Origin: a virus
Taxonomy: Duplodnaviria > Heunggongvirae > Uroviricota > Caudoviricetes
Virus record (IMG/VR): IMGVR_UViG_3300042870_001427
Span: 36,147-100,146 of that record
Direction: 5' to 3' (one strand)
Length of the DNA: 64,000 nt
Both the position numbers and the translations under genes were made by a program. Under the pieces are notes generated by a model. The model was given only the letters and a program-made list of their open reading frames with translations, was not told the DNA's origin and did no database searches. This document shows, piece by piece, positions 3,584-21,075 of this stretch. How positions within the stretch are numbered: position 1 is the stretch's first letter; each line of letters opens with the position of its first letter.

Positions 3584-4560
3584 TCTTAACTAGAACACCC
3601 CTACGGGTTAGTCTCTTTGGTGGTGGGAGTGACATACCATCCTACTACGAAAGAGAGCCCGGTAGAGTACTGTCATTTACTATTGACAAGTACATGTACA
3701 TTGCCCTGTGTCGTACTGCCTTTAAGGGTGTGAAGGTGGTATACAATGAGGTTGAGCTTGCCGATTCAGTAAGTAGTGTTAAGCATTCAAGAGTAAGAGA
3801 ATGTCTGCGTGGATTTGGTATATCATCACACGTTGAAATTAGTTCTTTTTGTGAGATACCAACCAAGGGTACAGGTCTAGGATCTTCATCAACATTTACT
3901 GTTGGTTTAATTAACGCATTATCTAATCTGTTAAACATGCCCATGGGTAAGTATGATATCGCAAACCTTGCCTGCTTAATAGAGATAGAATCATGTAAGG
4001 AACCGATAGGTAAACAAGATCAGTTTGCTGCTGCATTTGGTGGTGCTAATGTATTTGGATTTCACAAAGACGGAGTACTGATAGTTAAACCTGCAGTGTC
4101 AAATGTAATCATAGAACGTCTCAATAACAATCTCATGATGTTCTATACCGGGCTAACAAGAAATACTTCTGATATCTTAAGTGTACAGAGTAAGAGTAAG
4201 ACCAATGACTCATTGCTTAAGAGAATGGTAGGTATGACTATAGATGCAGAGATTGCACTTGAGTTAGGTAACTTAGATGATATCGGTGAAATGTTAGATG
4301 AGGGGTGGCAATTAAAGCGTCAACTAGCGTATAATGTATCTAACGACTTCATCGATATGCATTATAAGAAAGCAATGCAGGCTGGAGCCCTTGGTGGTAA
4401 AATACTAGGGGCCGGTGGTGGTGGGTACTTACTGTTCTATGTGCCTTTGGATAAACAAGAGGCAGTAAGACAGTCGTTGAGTAACTTGGAAGAGTTTAAA
4501 TTTAAATTTGAGGATACTGGTACTACAGTAGTATATAATGAAAGCAAGCGAACACTTTAA
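3580..4560 (+). CDS. hddA: D-glycero-alpha-D-manno-heptose-7-phosphate kinase (GHMP)
   Basis: RTPLRVSLFGGGSD, PTKGTGLGSSS, IGKQDQ, GGKILGAGGGG. Confidence 0.88.
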   Translation: MILTRTPLRVSLFGGGSDIPSYYEREPGRVLSFTIDKYMYIALCRTAFKGVKVVYNEVELADSVSSVKHSRVRECLRGFGISSHVEISSFCEIPTKGTGLGSSSTFTVGLINALSNLLNMPMGKYDIANLACLIEIESCKEPIGKQDQFAAAFGGANVFGFHKDGVLIVKPAVSNVIIERLNNNLMMFYTGLTRNTSDILSVQSKSKTNDSLLKRMVGMTIDAEIALELGNLDDIGEMLDEGWQLKRQLAYNVSNDFIDMHYKKAMQAGALGGKILGAGGGGYLLFYVPLDKQEAVRQSLSNLEEFKFKFEDTGTTVVYNESKRTL

Positions 4561-7612: not shown

Positions 7613-8240
7613 ACATGATCTAAAGACTGTATACAGGGACGGGAAGAGATACTACGATGTAGATGGTGATCTCTTTCCCTCCGTAACCACCGTTCTTTCC
7701 TCATTACCTAAACCCGGGCTTGATGCCTGGAAACAAAAAGTAGGTCACGCCGAAGCCACCCGTATTATGACGGAGGCGGCCACAAGAGGTACCAAGGCCC
7801 ACAAGATGTGGGAGGAGTATCTTCGTAACGATGTTGACTTTGCAAAAGGTATGATGCCTACGTCTATCATGCTTTTTAAACAACTTCAGCCCTGGCTAGA
7901 CCGGAACATTGATTTCCTGTATGGCAATGAGATCGCTTTGTTCTCCAAGGCTCTCCGTACTGCCGGCAGGTGTGATGCCATTGCATCCGTTAACGGGCGT
8001 CCGGCAATCGTAGACTTCAAGACATCTACCAATCCAAAGAAAGAAGAATGGATTGAGACATACTTTTATCAGGTTACGGCTTATGCTATAATGGTGGAGG
8101 AGATGTACGGTATAGTGGTCGAAGACGCATACATCCTTATTGCCGTTGCCGATGGGTCACCTCAGAGTTTCCCCATCAGGACCAGACATTACAAAACAAA
8201 AGTAAAAGGCATATTTAATAGTTACATTACTAACAGTTGA
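7554..8240 (+). CDS. PD-(D/E)XK Cas4/RecB-like exonuclease
   Basis: PSVTTVLS, AATRGT..H, AGRCD, IVDFKTS, YFYQ..AYA. Confidence 0.88.
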   Translation: MLKTDLAIRQEPFKYQHLPEHDLKTVYRDGKRYYDVDGDLFPSVTTVLSSLPKPGLDAWKQKVGHAEATRIMTEAATRGTKAHKMWEEYLRNDVDFAKGMMPTSIMLFKQLQPWLDRNIDFLYGNEIALFSKALRTAGRCDAIASVNGRPAIVDFKTSTNPKKEEWIETYFYQVTAYAIMVEEMYGIVVEDAYILIAVADGSPQSFPIRTRHYKTKVKGIFNSYITNS

Positions 8241-8265
8241 CTTAATTTACGTGTCCTTGTATAAT
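8237..8265 (+). promoter_or_regulatory. sigma70 consensus promoter
   Basis: TTGACT-N17-TATAAT. Confidence 0.85.
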
Positions 8266-8289
8266 TGAAAAACATTAAGAAAGGATGCT

Positions 8290-8775
8290 ATGATAGCAAC
8301 TGATAAATTGATGACCAAGCTCGATTTGAGTAAGGGAATGTCTGTTAACCGTGCCATTGTACAAACCAGTGAGTACATCGATAGTCAATCTGATCCCCTA
8401 AAGGTTTCAAATTCTATCCTTAAGACTCTAGGTATGTCAGGGTTCAGTTATACAGAGCCTTCACAGGCAAAGATCATGGCTTTGGCCTCGATTGAGCAGG
8501 TGTTGTTGATGGAGGTATTTGATCCTAGTAAGGCTGAAGAAATAGCTATTACAAAGTTCGAACGTATCCTAAAGAGAATGCCTTATGCAGTCAAGGGTAC
8601 AGCGGTATCAAAGGCTCGTAAAGGCTCAAAGAGAGAGGTTGCTCGTCAGATCTACTTAGAGAATAAGGGAAAAGACGAGAAGGAAATAATTGCAATAGTT
8701 TCCAAAGAAATGGAAGTAACTTTGCAAAACGCGTATACATACATATATCTAGTTAAGAAAGACTTAAAGTCGTAA
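8290..8775 (+). CDS. hypothetical protein with C-terminal HTH-like region
   Basis: 161 aa, RBS AAGGA; C-terminus resembles the 18112 ORF. Confidence 0.7.
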   Translation: MIATDKLMTKLDLSKGMSVNRAIVQTSEYIDSQSDPLKVSNSILKTLGMSGFSYTEPSQAKIMALASIEQVLLMEVFDPSKAEEIAITKFERILKRMPYAVKGTAVSKARKGSKREVARQIYLENKGKDEKEIIAIVSKEMEVTLQNAYTYIYLVKKDLKS

Positions 8776-8780
8776 GATAG

Positions 8781-8809
8781 TTGACTTTATTAGCTACATA
8801 TAGTATAAT
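8781..8809 (+). promoter_or_regulatory. sigma70 promoter of the tRNA array
   Basis: TTGACT-N17-TATAAT. Confidence 0.85.
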
Positions 8810-8837
8810 ACAAACATGTTAAGGATAAAAGGTATAA

Positions 8838-8933
8838 ATGCTCAGTTGTAATCAACGATCAGAATCAATTAATTGGAATCATCTATCCGATGAGGCCGGT
8901 TATCCTTTTATCTCGGGGTCTTGTAAGTTGTAA
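8838..8933 (+). CDS. putative attenuator leader peptide (31 aa)
   Basis: MLSCNQRSESINWNHLSDEAGYPFISGSCKL; AAAAGG 5 nt upstream; its end covers the antiterminator arm. Confidence 0.55.
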   Translation: MLSCNQRSESINWNHLSDEAGYPFISGSCKL

Positions 8934-8988
8934 TCGTACAGCTTATCCCAACAAGACCCCAGGCCTAAACACCCTGGGGTTCTTTTTT
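8915..8988 (+). promoter_or_regulatory. antiterminator/terminator switch
   Basis: GGGGTCTTGT (8915-24) is a perfect complement of ACAAGACCCC (8951-60), which overlaps the terminator ACCCCAGG/CCTGGGGT-TCTTTTTT (8956-88). Confidence 0.8.
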
Positions 8989-9015
8989 GCTCTTTTAAAA
9001 TTTAAGCAGGTATTT

Positions 9016-9090
9016 GCACCTATCGTCTATCGGTTAGGACGCTGCCCTTTCAAGGCGGAAAGAGGAGTTCGATTCTCCTTAGGTGTACCA
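9016..9090 (+). tRNA. tRNA-Glu(UUC)
   Basis: CTGCC-CTTTCAA-GGCGG; cloverleaf; CCA. Confidence 0.93.
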
Positions 9091-9200
9091 TATTAGAATA
9101 CATTTCAGGTTGAGTTAGATTCGCGGTCTAACTATTTGGGAAGAAAGACGGTGGAGATATCTGCCAAACACTTCTAAGATACGAAGTGTGTTCTAATATG
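9089..9200 (+). ncRNA. post-CCA long-stem element, family II copy 1
   Basis: 18-bp terminal stem CATATTAGAATACATTTC/GAAGTGTGTTCTAATATG. Confidence 0.6.
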
Positions 9201-9205
9201 ATAAT

Positions 9206-9281
9206 GTAGGTGTGACCCGAAAGGCTAGGGAGCAGATTGCAAATCTGTTATATGCAGGTTCAACTCCTGTCACCTACTCCA
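9206..9281 (+). tRNA. tRNA-Cys(GCA)
   Basis: GCAGA-TTGCAAA-TCTGT; U73; CCA. Confidence 0.92.
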
Positions 9282-9286
9282 GATAC

Positions 9287-14888: not shown

Positions 14889-15407
14889 GTGAAAGGTACT
14901 ACTAAAATGTTCTTGACGGGTATGGTTGTGACTATCCTGGTCATGAAACCATCGGTAGGTGTAGCTTTTGTTACTGCTATTTCTAACGGTATATCTACTG
15001 TTGCGAATGCAATGCATGAACCTACTGTACGCCATGAGCCTCCTGTTGTTGTGCAGGCTAATGATGATGAGTTTAAGGTCAAGATTATGTCTCTGTTTGA
15101 TAAACTATTCGAACGTCTAGATAAGAAAGAAGAACCTAAAGAGGAATTTATTACCTCCGGGCCACTTGCACCTGATGATACTCCTGTAGTTGTTACCCCT
15201 AGTTCTAAGGAGGTAGCATATAACCAGGCCTTGGCCGAGCAGGCTATTCTTGAGCGTCATGAACGGTATACAGGTGAAGATCCTATTGTTCGTAAACGGC
15301 TCAACCTACCTCCTAAACTTAAATCTATCGATCAGTTCGAGTATAAGGACGAGGTGAGTGCTGCAACGTTTGATAAAGAGTTTGCTGCAAAGGTGGGTAA
15401 GAAATAA
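14889..15407 (+). CDS. hypothetical protein with N-terminal hydrophobic segment
   Basis: RBS GAGGTG, GTG start, 172 aa. Confidence 0.7.
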   Translation: MKGTTKMFLTGMVVTILVMKPSVGVAFVTAISNGISTVANAMHEPTVRHEPPVVVQANDDEFKVKIMSLFDKLFERLDKKEEPKEEFITSGPLAPDDTPVVVTPSSKEVAYNQALAEQAILERHERYTGEDPIVRKRLNLPPKLKSIDQFEYKDEVSAATFDKEFAAKVGKK

Positions 15408-15739
15408 TGGATCCGTCTCTTGCAGTATCTCTAGCTGGACTGGCCTTCACATTGTTTGCCGGTCCGAGTTACGCATATAAATATCAGGAGTTAGAAGGTA
15501 GCAAGTTATGTGACTTCTCTAACATCCAGGTCTTGCAAAAGAACGATCAAAAGATCTATCTTAAGTATGATCAAACAGTCTTTGTAATGTATCAGAAGCC
15601 TACTAACAAGGGTGTTAAGAACGTTAAAAGATTTGAAACGACTAATGGCGGGGTTGTATTTTTACAGTTACCTGAAAAGGCAATGTTGCTTGATAACGTA
15701 AGAATGAAACCTATATTAAACGAATGTAAGAATATATGA
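15407..15739 (+). CDS. hypothetical exported protein
   Basis: TAATG coupling; signal-peptide-like N-terminus. Confidence 0.7.
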   Translation: MDPSLAVSLAGLAFTLFAGPSYAYKYQELEGSKLCDFSNIQVLQKNDQKIYLKYDQTVFVMYQKPTNKGVKNVKRFETTNGGVVFLQLPEKAMLLDNVRMKPILNECKNI

Positions 15740-15746
15740 GGTGGAT

Positions 15747-15959
15747 ATGTCAGATGGTGGTAAAGGATCAAAGCCTAGACCCATAAGCATAACTCAACAT
15801 GAATACGATACTAGGTGGGATGCTATATTTGGCCGTGATATACCAGAGGATAACACGGGTACAGATAAGAATGAGTACTCAGATGTACTAACCACTGAAG
15901 ATTGTATCATTAATATGCCAGGCACAATTGGAAGTGCCAAGATGGTTTTTAAAGAATAA
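15747..15959 (+). CDS. small hypothetical protein
   Basis: MSDGGKGSKPRP N-terminus; RBS GAGGTG. Confidence 0.6.
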   Translation: MSDGGKGSKPRPISITQHEYDTRWDAIFGRDIPEDNTGTDKNEYSDVLTTEDCIINMPGTIGSAKMVFKE

Positions 15960-15963
15960 TAAT

Positions 15964-16037
15964 ATCTCGTTGGTGTAATGGTAGCACAAGAAACTCCAAA
16001 TCTCTTGGCGGGAGTTCGATTCTCTCACGGGATACCA
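15964..16037 (+). tRNA. second tRNA-Trp(CCA), divergent
   Basis: CTCCAAA loop; one anticodon-stem mismatch; A73. Confidence 0.72.
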
Positions 16038-16048
16038 GTAGGATAGTT

Positions 16049-16732
16049 ATGGAATATATTGATCGCTTTGACTTGTTCCCAACCCCGGTATTGAGGTATG
16101 GATTCAAGGACATTGAACTTCATCATGAAAACCTTGTCAAGTACCTTGCAAGAGACGACTTGTATTTCAAGGACAAGGAACGTAACGGCGTTCAAACAAC
16201 CGATGGTGATCTCTTTAACCACAAAGAGATGGAACCAGTATACAACTTATTTACCGAATGCTTCAATGATGCTATGGATAAGTTAGGTTACGAAAAAGAT
16301 CACGGTATTATTTCAATGTGGGCCACCAGACAAAGGGATGGCGGATTCCATCATCAGCACATTCATAAGAATACTTTTCTTGCCGCTGTACTCTATCTCT
16401 TTGACATAGACGGTACAGCCAGCGGTACCACATTTCATAATCTTAATCGTAACCTTCATCAAATTGATCCGCGTCATAAAAAAGATGCTGATCGGTTCTT
16501 CAAAGATAGTGAAAATGTTCCATTCATAAACGGTACAGTGTTGGTGTTTCCTGGATGGGCATCCCATTCAACCATTCCTTCACCAAGCCGCTATAGAATA
16601 ATGGTAGCTGCTAATATGATGCCGATTGGTCGTACGACCTCCGATCATTACGATCAGTACTACTACCATGACCCCAAGGAAAAGGGTTACCTAAATCTAG
16701 TAGATCATATCAAAGAAGGATACAGTAAGTAA
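16049..16732 (+). CDS. TIGR02466-like putative 2OG-Fe(II) oxygenase
   Basis: LFPTP, HHQHIHKNTFLAAVLYL, VFPGWASHST. Confidence 0.8.
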   Translation: MEYIDRFDLFPTPVLRYGFKDIELHHENLVKYLARDDLYFKDKERNGVQTTDGDLFNHKEMEPVYNLFTECFNDAMDKLGYEKDHGIISMWATRQRDGGFHHQHIHKNTFLAAVLYLFDIDGTASGTTFHNLNRNLHQIDPRHKKDADRFFKDSENVPFINGTVLVFPGWASHSTIPSPSRYRIMVAANMMPIGRTTSDHYDQYYYHDPKEKGYLNLVDHIKEGYSK

Positions 16733-16733
16733 T

Positions 16734-16809
16734 GCGGGTGTAGCTCAGTTGGTAGAGCATTACCTTGCCAAGGTAAATGTCGTCGGTTCGAACCCGATCG
16801 CCCGCTCCA
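16734..16809 (+). tRNA. tRNA-Gly(GCC)
   Basis: TTACC-TTGCCAA-GGTAA. Confidence 0.95.
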
Positions 16810-16830
16810 TTTTTTACCTGCTTAAATTTA

Positions 16831-16904
16831 GCTCCTATAGTTAAATGGTATAACACGTCCTTGGTAAGGACGAATTCCAAGTTCAATTCTCGGTGGGAGC
16901 ACCA
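16831..16904 (+). tRNA. tRNA-Thr(GGU)
   Basis: CGTCC-TTGGTAA-GGACG. Confidence 0.9.
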
Positions 16905-16905
16905 G

Positions 16906-16934
16906 TTGCATTAAATTACGGTATGAGTTATAAT
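16906..16934 (+). promoter_or_regulatory. sigma70 promoter
   Basis: TTGCAT-N17-TATAAT. Confidence 0.7.
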
Positions 16935-16940
16935 CTAAGT

Positions 16941-17156
16941 ATGAAACAGGCTGGTAGCTTAATGGTAAAGCAGGGAACTCATAATTCCTTGAGTGGGGGT
17001 TCAATTCCCTCCCAGCCTACCATTGACGAGCTTAGGAAACTAGGCAAGTGGCCATTCCCTCAATGGGAGAATGGTAGTATAGTCCAATTAAAGGTTAAGA
17101 CACCTCGTGTGCCAAAGCCGGATTGGTTTAAAGAAGCAGGTGAAGCACCTTTTTGA
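16941..17156 (+). CDS. possible small protein whose 5' part spans tRNA-Ile2
   Basis: ATG at the expected TSS; open frame through the tRNA to ...WPFPQWENG...EAPF. Confidence 0.35.
   Translation: MKQAGSLMVKQGTHNSLSGGSIPSQPTIDELRKLGKWPFPQWENGSIVQLKVKTPRVPKPDWFKEAGEAPF
16948..17022 (+). tRNA. tRNA(CAU), probably Ile2 (lysidine type)
   Basis: GGGAA-CTCATAA-TTCCT; A1:U72. Confidence 0.85.
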
Positions 17157-17163
17157 GGTCAAT

Positions 17164-17643
17164 ATGAAGAATCTAGATTTAGAAGAAGTAAAGGCATACA
17201 TTCAAGCCCAGAGCCCAGAAACCAAGATATACATTGGTGCTGACTCCGAACGTTATCAAAAAATAGTTAACGGTCGTAATGAATGGTTTGCCGATTACAT
17301 TCTTGTAGTTGTAGTTCATATTGACGGTTGCCATGGATGTAAGATCTTTGGTGAAGTTCAAACTGAACGTGACTTCGATAGAAAAGCAAGCCGTCCATCA
17401 ACTCGTCTTATGACTGAGGTATACAAAGTTGCAGAACTGTACCTTAGAATGGAAGAGGTGTTGGATGGTAGAGATGTTGAAGTTCACCTGGACATTAACC
17501 CTAATGAAATGTACAACAGCAGCATTGTGGTGCAGCAAGCTATTGGATACATCAAGGGTGTGTGTAGTGTAACTCCAAAAGTCAAACCTCAGGCTTTTGC
17601 AGCTTCGTATGCAGCTGATAGATTTAAATCAGTGATGAATTAA
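17164..17643 (+). CDS. RNase H-like YkuK/DUF458 protein
   Basis: KIYIGADS, RLMTEV, EVHLDIN, VKP.AFAASYAAD; RBS GAGG before ATG 17164. Confidence 0.8.
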   Translation: MKNLDLEEVKAYIQAQSPETKIYIGADSERYQKIVNGRNEWFADYILVVVVHIDGCHGCKIFGEVQTERDFDRKASRPSTRLMTEVYKVAELYLRMEEVLDGRDVEVHLDINPNEMYNSSIVVQQAIGYIKGVCSVTPKVKPQAFAASYAADRFKSVMN

Positions 17644-17651
17644 CATCTGTT

Positions 17652-17734
17652 GCGGGTGTGGTGGAAAGGTAGACACAGGAGACTTAAAATCTCCCGCCTA
17701 GAGCGTGCCGGTTCGAATCCGGCCACCCGTACCA
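17652..17734 (+). tRNA. tRNA-Leu(UAA)
   Basis: GGAGA-CTTAAAA-TCTCC; long variable arm. Confidence 0.95.
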
Positions 17735-17773
17735 ATAAATAGTGGTATACTTTGAAATCTCAAAGGAGATACC

Positions 17774-18013
17774 ATGAAGCTTACTGCATCCGAACGCAAC
17801 CATCTCAACGAGATGATTGAAACCCAAACGTTCTACGGAATCCCGCTGGAACAGGTTACCCAGGAAATACTGGAAGAAATCGACCACACCGAGGCACGTA
17901 CCCTTTACATCGTCGCCTGCATGCTTGGATGGGATATGAGGGACAAGGAATCCCTGGATCACTTTCCCTACGAGGCAGAAGAATACCTCAAGAAATTCCA
18001 ACTAATTCAGTAA
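17774..18013 (+). CDS. hypothetical protein
   Basis: RBS AAGGAG; GC-richer than its neighbours. Confidence 0.7.
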   Translation: MKLTASERNHLNEMIETQTFYGIPLEQVTQEILEEIDHTEARTLYIVACMLGWDMRDKESLDHFPYEAEEYLKKFQLIQ

Positions 18014-18037
18014 TAAAAAATAGTTACTTTTCGTAAG

Positions 18038-18066
18038 TTGCCTTAATTTCGTAATGTCGTTATAAT
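18038..18066 (+). promoter_or_regulatory. sigma70 promoter
   Basis: TTGCCT-N17-TATAAT. Confidence 0.7.
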
Positions 18067-18111
18067 CATAGTGTGGACTCTGAAACCCACAAACTTTAGA
18101 AAGACTTTATT

Positions 18112-18450
18112 ATGAATAAACTTGAAACTGCAATTGAGATCGTTAAGGCCGGTAATGGTGATAAGAAACTTCTGCTGGCTAATATCCAGAACGCTTTGGG
18201 CGTGACTCGTGCTAACGCATCTGTCTATCTCTTCAAAGCTAATAAGGTAATTGAGACTGGTGAGCCTGTAGAGGTGAAAGAAACTAAGGTGAAGGCTGTT
18301 AAGGTCGAGCCTACTGTTGAGTTCGAGGTATCTGAAGAAGATCAACTTGCCTACCATGAATCTATGGCCGAACGCTCTGCCTCTGGCCTCTCCGTTATGT
18401 CTATCCAGGAATGGAAAGAGATGACTGAGAATCTTAAGGCCTTTGCATGA
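18112..18450 (+). CDS. hypothetical HTH-like protein
   Basis: IQNALGVTRANASVYLFK; resembles the C-terminus of the 8290 ORF. Confidence 0.7.
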   Translation: MNKLETAIEIVKAGNGDKKLLLANIQNALGVTRANASVYLFKANKVIETGEPVEVKETKVKAVKVEPTVEFEVSEEDQLAYHESMAERSASGLSVMSIQEWKEMTENLKAFA

Positions 18451-18638
18451 GATTCCGCTCCAAGAAAATGATGGAGTATGAGCATCACTTCGAACAAGAG
18501 GAGATGCTCAAGTACGCCAGCAACCTGATCTATGAATCTAATATGGATCGGGACCAGGTTACTGCTAACTTTGCCGAGGCATACGGTGAAGAAAATCTCT
18601 ACCTTATCGATGAGATTCTAGATGAAGAATTCAGTTGA
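18447..18638 (+). CDS. hypothetical acidic protein
   Basis: ATGA coupling; 63 aa. Confidence 0.6.
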   Translation: MRFRSKKMMEYEHHFEQEEMLKYASNLIYESNMDRDQVTANFAEAYGEENLYLIDEILDEEFS

Positions 18639-18663
18639 TTTATTTTCGTGACTAATCTATAAT
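18635..18663 (+). promoter_or_regulatory. sigma70 promoter
   Basis: TTGATT-N17-TATAAT. Confidence 0.7.
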
Positions 18664-18694
18664 AGATATATCTTAACTTAAATTGGAGTAACAA

Positions 18695-19639
18695 ATGTCT
18701 CATTTAGTAGAAACTATGGCATATGCTGGTGAAGTTCCATGGCATGGACTTGGTAAGTCTGTACCTGCAGATCTTTCGCCTGAGCAGATGTTGAAGGCAG
18801 CCGATCTTGACTGGACGGTCAGCAAGGTTCCTGCATTTGCAAAGATTGGTAACGAAAATAAACCTGTGGGTTGGTCAGCCCTGGTTCGTTCTTCTGACGA
18901 TCGTATTCTCGATGTTGTATCTGATGAATGGAATCCTATTCAGAATTCAGAAGCATTTGAGTTCTTTCACGAGTATTGCCAGAATGGTGATATGGAGATG
19001 CATACTGCTGGTTCCCTTAAGAACGGTCAAGTAGTTTGGGCTCTTGCTAAGGTGAAGGAATCATTCGAATTGTTTAAAGGTGATCAAGTTGACTCTTACC
19101 TCCTATTTACTAATCCTCACCGCTTTGGCCAGTGTATTGATATTCGCTTTACTCCTATTCGTGTGGTATGTAATAATACGCTTACCCTTAGCCTGTCTGA
19201 GAATTCTGATCGTATGGTCAAGAAAAATCACCGTAGCCTCTTCGATGCCTCAAAGGTAAAGGAAGAGTTAGGTATTGCTACGAATAAACTTGCCAAGTAT
19301 AAGGAGATGGCTGAATTCCTTGGAAGCAAGCGCTATACCGATGACACCATCAAGAATTACTTCCGTGAGGTATTTCCTACTCTCTCTAAGAATAAAGAGA
19401 ATGATTCGGAGACTCTGTCGCGTGGTGCTAAGTCAGCCCTGGCCGTCCTCGAGACCCAGCCTGGTGCTAACTTTGCCGAAGGTAGTTGGTGGCAGGCATT
19501 CAATGCGGTTACTTTCTTGACCGATCATAAGATTGGACGTTCGGCTGATACCCGACTACAATCGGCATGGTTCGGTCCTAATAAGAACCTCAAGATCAAG
19601 GCTCTTGAGACCGCAATCGAATACGCCGAAGCAGCATAA
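18695..19639 (+). CDS. DUF932/TIGR03299 phage-plasmid family protein
   Basis: MAY.GEVPWHGLG, TAGSLKNGQVVW, FTPIRVVCNNTL, SWWQAFNAVT..DH. Confidence 0.9.
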   Translation: MSHLVETMAYAGEVPWHGLGKSVPADLSPEQMLKAADLDWTVSKVPAFAKIGNENKPVGWSALVRSSDDRILDVVSDEWNPIQNSEAFEFFHEYCQNGDMEMHTAGSLKNGQVVWALAKVKESFELFKGDQVDSYLLFTNPHRFGQCIDIRFTPIRVVCNNTLTLSLSENSDRMVKKNHRSLFDASKVKEELGIATNKLAKYKEMAEFLGSKRYTDDTIKNYFREVFPTLSKNKENDSETLSRGAKSALAVLETQPGANFAEGSWWQAFNAVTFLTDHKIGRSADTRLQSAWFGPNKNLKIKALETAIEYAEAA

Positions 19640-19642
19640 TAG

Positions 19643-19661
19643 ATGGGGACTGTGTCCCCAT
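19643..19661. terminator. GC hairpin, possible terminator
   Basis: ATGGGGAC-tgt-GTCCCCAT. Confidence 0.5.
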
Positions 19662-19686
19662 AAATATGGTATCTTTTGGAGATACC

Positions 19687-20103
19687 ATGCAACAGTTCAG
19701 AGATTTTTTAACAGAAGCAATGAAGCAAACTAAACTGCCTGAGCCAAAGAAGGAGGCGTCAGGCAAGCCTAAAGTAATGAGCGGTAAAGAAACAATGGAG
19801 CATTTTCCGCGCCCGACGATGGATGCAGTGATGAAACATCCACTATATCAACGTCACATTGCAGGAGCTGAACATAGAGGGTTTGCACATTCTGTTAATA
19901 AATCTTCTGTAGATAATAAATATGATACACATATTGTACATGCTGTAACAGGTGGTACTGGTATCCGTCACAGAATTGACTTTCATATTGGGTTAAGTGG
20001 TCGCAAGGTAACTCATACCGAGCATTTAATTAACAAAGATAATGAAAAGTATCCCGAAGGTCATCCAGCGGCTGGCCAAGTGAAGTGGAAACATATATCA
20101 TAA
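19687..20103 (+). CDS. probable internal head protein (capsid-targeting-like N-terminus)
   Basis: MQQFRDFLTEA resembles the T4 CTS MKTYQEFIAE; ATAAATA late-promoter-like site at ~19660; RBS GGAG. Confidence 0.55.
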   Translation: MQQFRDFLTEAMKQTKLPEPKKEASGKPKVMSGKETMEHFPRPTMDAVMKHPLYQRHIAGAEHRGFAHSVNKSSVDNKYDTHIVHAVTGGTGIRHRIDFHIGLSGRKVTHTEHLINKDNEKYPEGHPAAGQVKWKHIS

Positions 20104-20105
20104 GA

Positions 20106-20510
20106 GTTATTGCTGTATGAAGCAAAGAGAAAAATGTCCTGGACGGGGGTGCGAATCCCCCCAGGTCCACCATAAAGGTTTTAAGTGGAAAATAAACTCA
20201 AGGAATTGCAAGAAAACTTAGCTAAAGATTTAGTTAAATGCGAAGTCCGTGAGGGAATAACACTTACAGAAGAGAACTTGGAAAAGATTTCAGAAACTTA
20301 CTCCAAAGTGTATGATATCATTACAGAGATAAAATCTTTATGATGGGCCTGACCTAGATTCGACAGGGCAAAGAGTAACAGAGTGGACAGCACATCAGAG
20401 AAGATGTTAAAACTAAAACCACGTAAACGCAAACGACGAACAGTTCGCATTAGCAGCCTAAACGCTGCTTAGGGTTTCGGTAGGTTTCCTCGTAACAGAA
20501 TAACCTACCA
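20106..20510 (+). ncRNA. ssrA: two-piece (circularly permuted) tmRNA
   Basis: Acceptor piece ends CAGGTCC-A-CCA (20172); coding piece starts GGGCCTG (20345) with G3:U70; tag ANDEQFALAA* at 20429-20461. Confidence 0.92.
20185..20343 (+). CDS. 52 aa ORF inside the tmRNA intervening segment
   Basis: AAAGG RBS, GTG start; VENKLKELQENLAKDLVKCEVREGITLTEENLEKISETYSKVYDIITEIKSL. Confidence 0.5.
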   Translation: MENKLKELQENLAKDLVKCEVREGITLTEENLEKISETYSKVYDIITEIKSL

Positions 20511-20532
20511 CTTAACTTAAAGGAGTTTTATT

Positions 20533-21075
20533 TTGAAGAAGATCATTAGTGCAACTTTGGTTGCTTTGTCATGCGCAGCATCTGCTGCAGATTATTTTAG
20601 CGTTGATATTGATTCGGTTAACGATCAAGTATCTGGTGCACGTAGCACCGCACAATACATTCGCGCTGGTAAGGAACTTGTTGGCATTCAAATGGGTGTA
20701 CAGGGACGTACTGCTATTTCCCAAGCCGGTGGAATGCTTAGTAGCCTAGAAGTAACTGGTGGTAAGAACATCGGACCTTTCACACCCTTTGTTGGTGTTG
20801 GCTTTGATAACGGCGCAAACGGTGCACGGAATGCCGATTACAAATACGGTTTGGTTGGTGCAACAGCAGGCATGAAAGCTGGTCCAGGTTTTGCATTGGC
20901 CGGTGTTAAGACCCGTCTTGGTACTACAGCAGCAGTTGAGACCAAGCAAACGGTTGTATTCGGTACATACAGTGTTCCAGTTGCCAAAAACGTTGCAGTT
21001 AACTTGAATGCAAGCAAGAGCTATCAGGATATTCAAGAGAACGCATTCGGCCTTGGAGTCGGAATTAGCTTCTAA
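20533..21075 (+). CDS. outer-membrane beta-barrel-like protein
   Basis: Signal peptide MKKIISATLVALSCAASAA; alternating strands; C-terminal GVGISF. Confidence 0.75.
   Translation: MKKIISATLVALSCAASAADYFSVDIDSVNDQVSGARSTAQYIRAGKELVGIQMGVQGRTAISQAGGMLSSLEVTGGKNIGPFTPFVGVGFDNGANGARNADYKYGLVGATAGMKAGPGFALAGVKTRLGTTAAVETKQTVVFGTYSVPVAKNVAVNLNASKSYQDIQENAFGLGVGISF

Follow-up and report, generated by a model that had tools for sequence, protein, structure and literature searches.

The leader element and its surroundings

The DNA analysed here is a stretch of 64,000 nucleotides, in the following called the window, and belongs to a virus record of 164 kb with a completeness of 96%. The virus was assigned to the T4-like phages by its baseplate and tail genes. 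The nearest cultured relatives are phages of alphaproteobacteria (Sinorhizobium phage phiM12, Caulobacter phage Cr30 and Pelagibacter phage HTVC008M), with only about 37% identity to the nearest cultured phages in the baseplate wedge protein. ARAGORN detected 28 tRNA genes genome-wide, all of them inside the window, plus a permuted tmRNA. The leader element is present as a single copy in its own genome and lies between a conserved 161-codon ORF without assigned function (8290-8775) and the tRNA-Glu gene (9016). The locus comprises the following features:

8781 to 8809, plus strand: sigma-70-type promoter, TTGACT-17-TATAAT, matching 11 of 12 consensus positions; predicted transcription start at about 8816
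8824 to 8832, plus strand: 5' strand of helix H1, GATAAAAGG, pairing with 8904-8912 and including the SD-like AAAGG
8838 to 8933, plus strand: leader ORF, ATG, 31 codons, TAA; peptide MLSCNQRSESINWNHLSDEAGYPFISGSCKL
8845 to 8859, plus strand: hairpin H2 (8845-8849/8855-8859), poorly conserved
8870 to 8902, plus strand: hairpin H3 (8870-8876/8896-8902 and 8879-8883/8889-8893), codons 11-13 and 18-22
8904 to 8912, plus strand: 3' strand of helix H1, CCTTTTATC, codons 23-25
8915 to 8924, plus strand: 5' arm of the competing (anti-terminator) helix, GGGGTCTTGT, codons 26-29, with the rare codons TCG and GGG
8925 to 8944, plus strand: inner hairpin AAGTTGTA/TACAGCTT (8925-8932/8937-8944), which holds the stop codon (8931-8933)
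8951 to 8960, plus strand: 3' arm of the competing helix, ACAAGACCCC, with CCCC (8957-8960) common to the terminator stem
8955 to 8988, plus strand: intrinsic terminator with a 9-bp stem (8955-8963/8973-8981), a 9-nt loop and the tract UUCUUUUUU
8989 to 9015, plus strand: spacer of 27 nt to tRNA-Glu, the site where two relatives (L023 and L003) carry an extra promoter segment of 85-165 nt
9016 to 11697, plus strand: first tRNA block, 17 tRNA genes from Glu to Ser-tga, with no plus-strand promoter-like site of its own

The promoter, the 31-codon ORF, the 10-bp antiterminator with its enclosed hairpin and the terminator were all found where the original prediction, made from the letters of the DNA, had placed them, and the 5' arm of the antiterminator indeed lies in the last leader codons. 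The two arms of this helix (8915-8924 and 8951-8960) are exact reverse complements of each other and enclose the inner hairpin. The AAAGG (8828-8832) stands 5 nt upstream of the leader ATG, a spacing typical for the genes of this phage. On the plus strand only three promoters with 11 of 12 consensus positions occur in about 21 kb, and the leader promoter is among them. The terminator was detected by RNAfold; a pattern scanner had missed it because the scanner allows loops of up to 8 nt and this loop has 9. No Rfam family was found in the leader (8816-8990) at E<=1 when positions 8000-21000 were searched.

A 68-codon ORF (8890-9096) that extends into tRNA-Glu was taken as spurious. An ATG at the predicted transcription start opens an 11-codon frame, MLRIKGINAQL (8816-8851), which overlaps the SD and the start of the leader ORF. 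This frame occurs only in the clade of the window (L002, L025 and L026) and is absent in L003 and L023, and it could be a leaderless mini-ORF or due to chance. The exact T4-type late promoter TATAAATA is found neither in the array nor in 8810-11700. The sequence TATAAATG at 8833-8840, which lies over the leader start codon, is one base off this motif, in the window's clade only.

Several neighbouring genes deserve mention. The 161-residue protein (8290-8775) is conserved and immediately 5' of the leader in all relatives, and its own promoter at 8237 matches 11 of 12 consensus positions; neither a PHROG match nor a homologue among cultured phages was found. Downstream, a 475-residue protein (12262-13689) matches PHROG 850, 'RNA-binding protein', with E=1e-141, and its homologues elsewhere in phages are annotated as DUF2828. 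Just upstream of it, 11987-12095 gives a weak match to the Rfam family YrlA (Y RNA-like; 31 bits against a gathering score of 69). The tRNA array may thus harbour a Ro-like protein accompanied by a Y-like RNA. The permuted two-piece tmRNA (20111-20461; Rfam RF04321, 111.6 bits) has the tag peptide ANDEQFALAA according to ARAGORN and fits an alphaproteobacterial or cyanobacterial host. Rfam also recognised a tRNA at 14734-14804 (46.9 bits) that ARAGORN did not call, and a tRNA-like stretch at 11211-11271 (28 bits, gathering score 29).

Conservation of the leader among related phages

Relatives were sought with the upstream protein, the peptide motif and both arms of the competing helix in viral, metagenome and genome contigs. 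Five variants of the element were obtained, all from freshwater metagenomes: that of the window (equal to L025), L002, L026, L023 (equal to L027) and L003 (equal to L004, L028 and L029). They form one clade of uncultured freshwater T4-like phages with the same synteny, and the element always precedes an array that begins with tRNA-Glu. The upstream protein is 95% identical to that of the window in L002, 63% in L003 and 60% in L023, so that about three lineages are represented. Scanning the viral contigs again for patterns of the peptide motif and of the two arms brought no additional members, and L045 was discarded as a chance match inside a Rep-like gene.

The ATG, the frame, the 5' arm, the inner hairpin, the 3' arm and the terminator are retained in 5/5 variants. 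The original prediction had named homologues lacking the ORF as evidence against it; here the ORF and the switch geometry occur together in every variant. L025, L002, L026 and L023 retain the leader promoter, and L003 has a weak one. The leader ORF is free of indels among the variants, and both of its flanks carry indels. In L003 the ORF is one codon shorter (30 residues), and the last residue varies; despite the indels and the shifted stop, stop codon and CCCC are 26 nt apart in L003 just as in the window. The 3' arm, which is non-coding DNA, is invariant except for a 1-nt bulge in L003, whereas the adjoining bases vary. The 5' arm always contains TCG (5% of the Ser codons) and GGG (12% of the Gly codons); elsewhere in the leader ORF the codons for Ser, Gly and Cys drift.

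More distant phages, whose upstream protein is 38-41% identical, have neither the peptide nor the RNA and carry few tRNAs. The most complete of these genomes (91%) has four tRNA genes only, which are located elsewhere, and no leader. As the element is confined to one clade, its co-occurrence with a large array counts as a single evolutionary event. A profile search of the peptide against 1.84 billion representatives returned only repeat proteins that sum up chance matches, the ESM Atlas gave no usable match, and a scan of genome contigs found no relative.

The arrays themselves are reshuffled in order and content between lineages (window 9016-17734 compared with L005, reverse strand), with tRNA-Glu first in all of them. 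The first block of L003 has Gly(tcc), Thr(tgt), Lys(ctt) and Arg(cct), while that of the window has Trp, Ser(tga) and Leu(caa).

Structure of the leader RNA

The leader fold is far more stable than those of shuffled sequences (z=-4.8). When the ORF was shuffled 20,000 times with preservation of the dinucleotides, a perfect complement of at least 10 nt that covers the CCCC of the terminator arm arose with P=0.0005. RNAalifold in combination with pair counting indicates that the whole leader is structured, with H2 and H3 inside H1, followed by the stop-codon hairpin and then the terminator. Six compensatory pairs were counted as compared to 1.6 +/- 1.0 in shuffles (0/500 reach this number) and to 0-3 compensatory pairs when the partners were slid, where the structure was derived from the very sequences tested.

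The clearest covariation is a three-base codon change from ATC to GGT in H1 of L003, which is matched in the strand located in the 5' UTR; two pairs of H1 are changed on both sides in this variant. H2 has two pairs with changes on both sides and several that are broken. Nine of the 12 pairs of H3 are invariant, and the pair 8872/8900 alternates between A-U and G-C. The inner hairpin has one pair that changes from G-C to A-U in L023. Sequestration of the SD by H1 was rejected as a conserved feature; the SD lies within H1 only in the window's clade. For 8915-8924 no upstream partner was found, that is, the leader has no 1:2 protector or pause hairpin, and in the terminator fold only the GGG of the 5' arm pairs, with a nearby CCC (8947-8949).

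Such a structure might also belong to an RNA-only sensor, in which the three-way junction of H1, H2 and H3 would bind a ligand, a protein or an RNA (e.g., a tRNA) and thereby bias the choice between terminator and anti-terminator, similar to riboswitches or protein-mediated attenuators, and the ORF would be incidental. Like in many transcriptional riboswitches, a long-range helix closes the junction, and its 3' strand stops 2 nt short of the switching sequence. The compensatory changes fall into H1, H2 and H3, the conserved codons all lie within helices, and codons 2-16 have no third-position bias (see below). However, H1 does not overlap the switching arm, and its stabilisation alone would therefore not choose the fold. 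Also, no Rfam family, T-box included, was matched at E<=1. This explanation furthermore leaves unexplained why the ATG and SD are conserved, why the frame is free of indels and why codons 17-30 have a third-position bias, and the diversity of amino acids and codons exceeds that of stop-free frames in the adjacent structured RNAs. We consider an RNA-only sensor improbable.

Probable translation of the leader ORF

The conservation pattern of the leader ORF suggests that it is translated, as a ribosome-dependent attenuator would demand. The ATG and an SD-like purine run are retained although the 5' UTRs have diverged. Five codons vary within the stretch 17-30. In four of them only the third position is affected, by a total of five changes that are all synonymous, and codon 25 differs at all three positions; pS is 0.31-0.41 and pN 0-0.06 in this part. 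Codons 2-16, in contrast, show no third-position bias, with pN of about 0.35 and pS of about 0.65 between lineages, and close relatives differ there by 3-6 non-synonymous and zero synonymous changes. In its codon adaptation the ORF is intermediate between coding and off-frame sequences, and this measure does not discriminate.

The peptide had been expected to diverge among related phages while the leader and the switch are conserved. This applies to the N-terminal half, which diverges freely, but not to the C-terminal half, where the fourteen residues SDEAGYPFxSGSCK are invariant, probably because their codons sit in conserved RNA helices. Since nearly every conserved codon lies in a helix, the RNA alone could drive the conservation of the peptide, in which case what speaks for coding is a small number of changes (p about 0.01) plus the composition.

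The invariant residues raise the question of an arrest peptide, which, like TnaC, SecM or SpeFL, would act in the exit tunnel and hold the ribosome near the end of the ORF upon a specific signal. The 14 invariant residues with their low pN relative to pS, as opposed to the free N-terminal half, would be in line with this. However, the same codons are base-paired in conserved helices, which would explain the invariance, the last residue is variable because the ORF of L003 is one codon shorter, and neither a known arrest motif nor a homologue was recognised. In addition, holding the ribosome at the ORF end could do no more than reinforce termination. Arrest by the nascent peptide is considered very unlikely.

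Amino acid and codon repertoire of the leader peptide

The number of different amino acids and codons was counted in all five variants:

Window: 18 kinds of amino acids; 27 of 31 codons distinct
L002: 18 kinds of amino acids; 28 of 31 codons distinct
L026: 19 kinds of amino acids; 29 of 31 codons distinct
L003: 19 kinds of amino acids (30 residues); 30 of 30 codons distinct
L023: 20 kinds of amino acids; 28 of 31 codons distinct

The original prediction had stated that the leader has no run of a single amino acid and uses 18 of the 20 kinds, 17 of them in the first 24 codons, and these counts are correct. It had called the broad repertoire suggestive, and this holds out of sample, as the relatives have 18, 19, 19 and 20 kinds and 28-30 distinct codons. 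In the null derived from the phage proteome 14.6 +/- 1.4 kinds of amino acids are expected (P=0.013 for 18, about 0.001 for 19 and 5e-5 for 20); the expectation for distinct codons is 22.9 +/- 1.9, and the P values range from 0.027 down to <2e-5. In comparison to stop-free 31-codon frames of the adjacent tRNA and non-coding RNA array, the window is marginal and the relatives are still unusual. The window is the least extreme variant, with p of 0.013-0.06 for 18 kinds and 0.03-0.09 for 27 codons, depending on the null used. Redrawing only the positions that vary between lineages gave P of about 0.002 for the 20 kinds of L023 and 0.03-0.05 for the 19 kinds of L003. With five variants in about three lineages and shared ancestry, these composition tests are not independent.

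No amino acid is enriched and no tandem regulatory codons are present in the leader; instead, the diversity is maximal. His, Gln, Arg and Thr are retained among the leaders at shifting positions, and Thr and Val are missing from the leader of the window. A codon matching specific for the first tRNA block was rejected, as 25/30 leader residues belong to tRNA kinds of block 1 where 22 are expected. Only two weak co-variations between leader and tRNA genes were noted: Thr codons together with a block-1 tRNA-Thr(tgt) only in L003, and TTG together with tRNA-Leu(caa) in the window and L023 but not in L003.

Energetics of the switch and presumed position of the ribosome

The terminator fold is the thermodynamic minimum in all variants and is favoured by 1.3-5.2 kcal/mol. 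Before the 3' arm of the terminator emerges, however, the competing helix is the best fold of the transcript, and the barrier for refolding is estimated at 4.9-7.7 kcal/mol. The same calculation on the E. coli trp attenuator, with its sequence from the genome record, gave a preference of 2.7 kcal/mol and a barrier of 5.8 kcal/mol. The energy difference and the barrier are similar, and the switch is therefore comparable to a proven attenuator in this respect.

A ribosome that finishes the ORF could reach codons 26-29, which form the 5' strand of the alternative helix. With the stop codon in its A site, a ribosome of the usual footprint would cover about 8919-8944, i.e., most of the 5' arm and the inner hairpin, whereas a stall with the A site up to about codon 22 would leave the 5' arm free.

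From the parts and their geometry the following mechanism can be proposed, in which the position of the ribosome would decide about termination; the direction of the response is what we infer from the arrangement. Transcription from the promoter at 8781 would give a structured leader with a translated 31-codon ORF. The last codons of the ORF (8915-8924) would pair with 8951-8960 and deprive the terminator stem of its CCCC. A ribosome that reaches the end of the ORF would cover the 5' arm and melt the inner hairpin, whereupon the terminator would form and transcription would stop 27 nt before tRNA-Glu. If the leader is not loaded with a ribosome, or if the ribosome lags behind or stalls up to about codon 22, the competing helix would form first and allow read-through into the tRNA genes. 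Because nearly all amino acids are sampled and codons are rarely reused, the ORF would report the general sufficiency of translation and tRNAs.

The claim that stalling upstream favours read-through has to be narrowed, as a stall at codons 23-31 would cover the 5' arm and favour termination. The proposed response would therefore miss shortages for Pro and Phe and, in the window, also for Lys.

Promoters and the terminator as a possible gate of the tRNA array

In the window's clade no promoter-like site is present on the plus strand between 8809 and 11704, and the first 17 tRNA genes must therefore be transcribed through the terminator. In L023 and L003, the segment of 85-165 nt between terminator and tRNA-Glu carries one or two promoter-like sites with 10 of 12 consensus positions. 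The window's clade cleanly lacks the segment, and the conserved tRNA leader sequence there follows directly on the U-tract. A C breaks this tract in the window's clade, whereas the relatives with the downstream promoter have an uninterrupted U8. At 3700-3830 of L003, directly before tRNA-Glu, a promoter module of about 88 nt is duplicated in tandem (TTGATT-17-TATAAT at 3710 and 3798).

Owing to the promoters behind the terminator in L003 and L023, the element is not a universal gate. The gating of the tRNA array that had been predicted would thus apply to the window's clade, where the 17 genes have no other promoter, but not for these two variants, in which the leader would be a separate transcription unit and read-through would not be needed for expression of the tRNAs.

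This leads to the alternative that the leader is a small transcription unit in general, giving a structured RNA of about 170 nt and/or a 31-residue peptide that would act in trans, with its own terminator. The array would then be transcribed from its own promoters (L003, L023) or, in the window's clade, by constitutive leak past a terminator of moderate efficiency, and the 10-bp helix would serve folding or stability instead of regulation. Besides the strong promoter-like sites past the terminator, this would agree with the terminator fold being the minimum in all variants, and with the 9-nt loop and, in the window's clade, the interrupted U-tract, which predict a leaky terminator without any switch. 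The conserved helices H1 and H3 also resemble those of a stable RNA. A precedent for trans-acting attenuator RNAs and leader peptides is reported with rnTrpL from Sinorhizobium (PMC6614838). On the other hand, a separate unit gives no role to a conserved 10-bp helix that removes exactly the CCCC of the terminator (P=5e-4) or to the fixation of rare codons in it, it leaves the extreme diversity of amino acids and codons unexplained, and the peptide has no homologue outside the clade. We regard a separate unit as rather unlikely.

Comparison with known attenuators

Returning to the ribosome-dependent attenuator, the leader shares with trpL, hisL, pheL, thrL, leuL and ilvL a short promoter-proximal ORF, mutually exclusive helices and an ORF end beside the 5' strand of the anti-terminator. 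However, in difference to the attenuators of amino acid operons, the phage leader has no codon run and no 1:2 hairpin, and its targets are tRNA genes. The likeness to his/trp/ilv attenuators that had been proposed is thus borne out by the trp-like energetics, while the trp-type 1:2 hairpin and the codon run are missing. Without the 1:2 hairpin, an untranslated phage leader should read through and not super-attenuate. For lack of both features the leader was classed as acting like a general-stress uORF attenuator and not as a member of the trp family.

In the pyrBI and pyrE attenuators the outcome is set by the closeness of ribosome and RNA polymerase, and a close ribosome melts the terminator and allows read-through. 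As the phage ORF ends 21 nt before the terminator stem, a close ribosome should here favour termination, which is opposite to pyrBI/pyrE. With T-box elements the leader has in common that the choice between terminator and anti-terminator in a leader RNA would report on the status of tRNAs. However, positions 8000-9016 gave no Rfam match at E<=1, and no Stem I, specifier loop or UGGN bulge is present; the bulge of the phage leader is C-rich and on the 3' side, unlike in T-box elements.

A multi-stress sensor has been proposed for the toiL uORF of the E. coli topAI-yjhQ operon, where stalls at different positions remodel the downstream RNA (PMC12121999). It differs from the phage leader, which has an intrinsic terminator, in using occlusion of the ribosome binding site and Rho-dependent termination.

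The closest parallel is the whiB7 uORF of mycobacteria, where efficient translation leads to a Rho-independent terminator and poor translation to an anti-terminator and read-through (10.1101/2023.06.02.543512). This uORF varies between species and has a broad repertoire, with only Cys lacking in that of M. smegmatis; its residues set which shortages are sensed, and knock-down of tRNAs or aminoacyl-tRNA synthetases activates the system (10.1101/2023.06.02.543512). The phage leader has the same geometry, with a repertoire of 18-20 of the 20 amino acids and a variable N-terminal half. The resemblance is to be read as an analogy only; no Rfam family matches the phage leader. Unlike whiB7, the leader belongs to a phage of a probably proteobacterial host, has no enrichment of alanine and precedes tRNA genes rather than a gene for a transcription factor.

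Proposed function and significance

Judged from sequence comparison and folding, our leading explanation, to which we give about an even chance of being correct, is that the element is a ribosome-dependent transcription attenuator of the whiB7 uORF type, which would head the tRNA array and sense the general supply of translation and tRNAs. Counting for this are the presence of all parts, the improbability of the competing helix (P=5e-4), conservation, covariation, composition, energetics, the absence of other promoters in the window's clade and the whiB7 precedent. Counting against it are the promoters in L003 and L023, the binding of the conserved codons in helices, the small number of lineages and, in the leader of the window, the gaps for Thr and Val. 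The putative attenuator also has neither a 1:2-type protector hairpin nor an identified pause site that would synchronise ribosome and polymerase.

A more far-reaching version, which is possible but doubtful, is that the leader works as a pan-codon test ORF in a feedback on tRNA supply, so that a shortage of any of many tRNAs would, via a lagging ribosome and formation of the competing helix, cause transcription of the phage's own array of up to 28 tRNAs. Such a shortage might arise from the codon demand of the phage, from host shut-off or from host anticodon nucleases; the link to host tRNA cleavage is purely conjectural.

Large tRNA arrays of phages are usually seen as constitutive cargo that fits the codon usage or replaces tRNAs lost to infection or to defence nucleases. 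Among the papers searched, none joins phage, tRNA array and attenuator. If the proposed attenuator is correct, the phage would have a demand-driven tRNA supply by translation-coupled transcription of tRNA genes, and attenuation by leader peptides, as in amino acid operons, resistance genes and whiB7, would extend to tRNA genes. The natural variants would be informative in this respect, as there are clades with and without a promoter behind the terminator and with an unbroken or an interrupted U-tract. If the pan-codon reading also applies, it would mean a homeostatic, possibly counter-defence control of viral tRNA genes.
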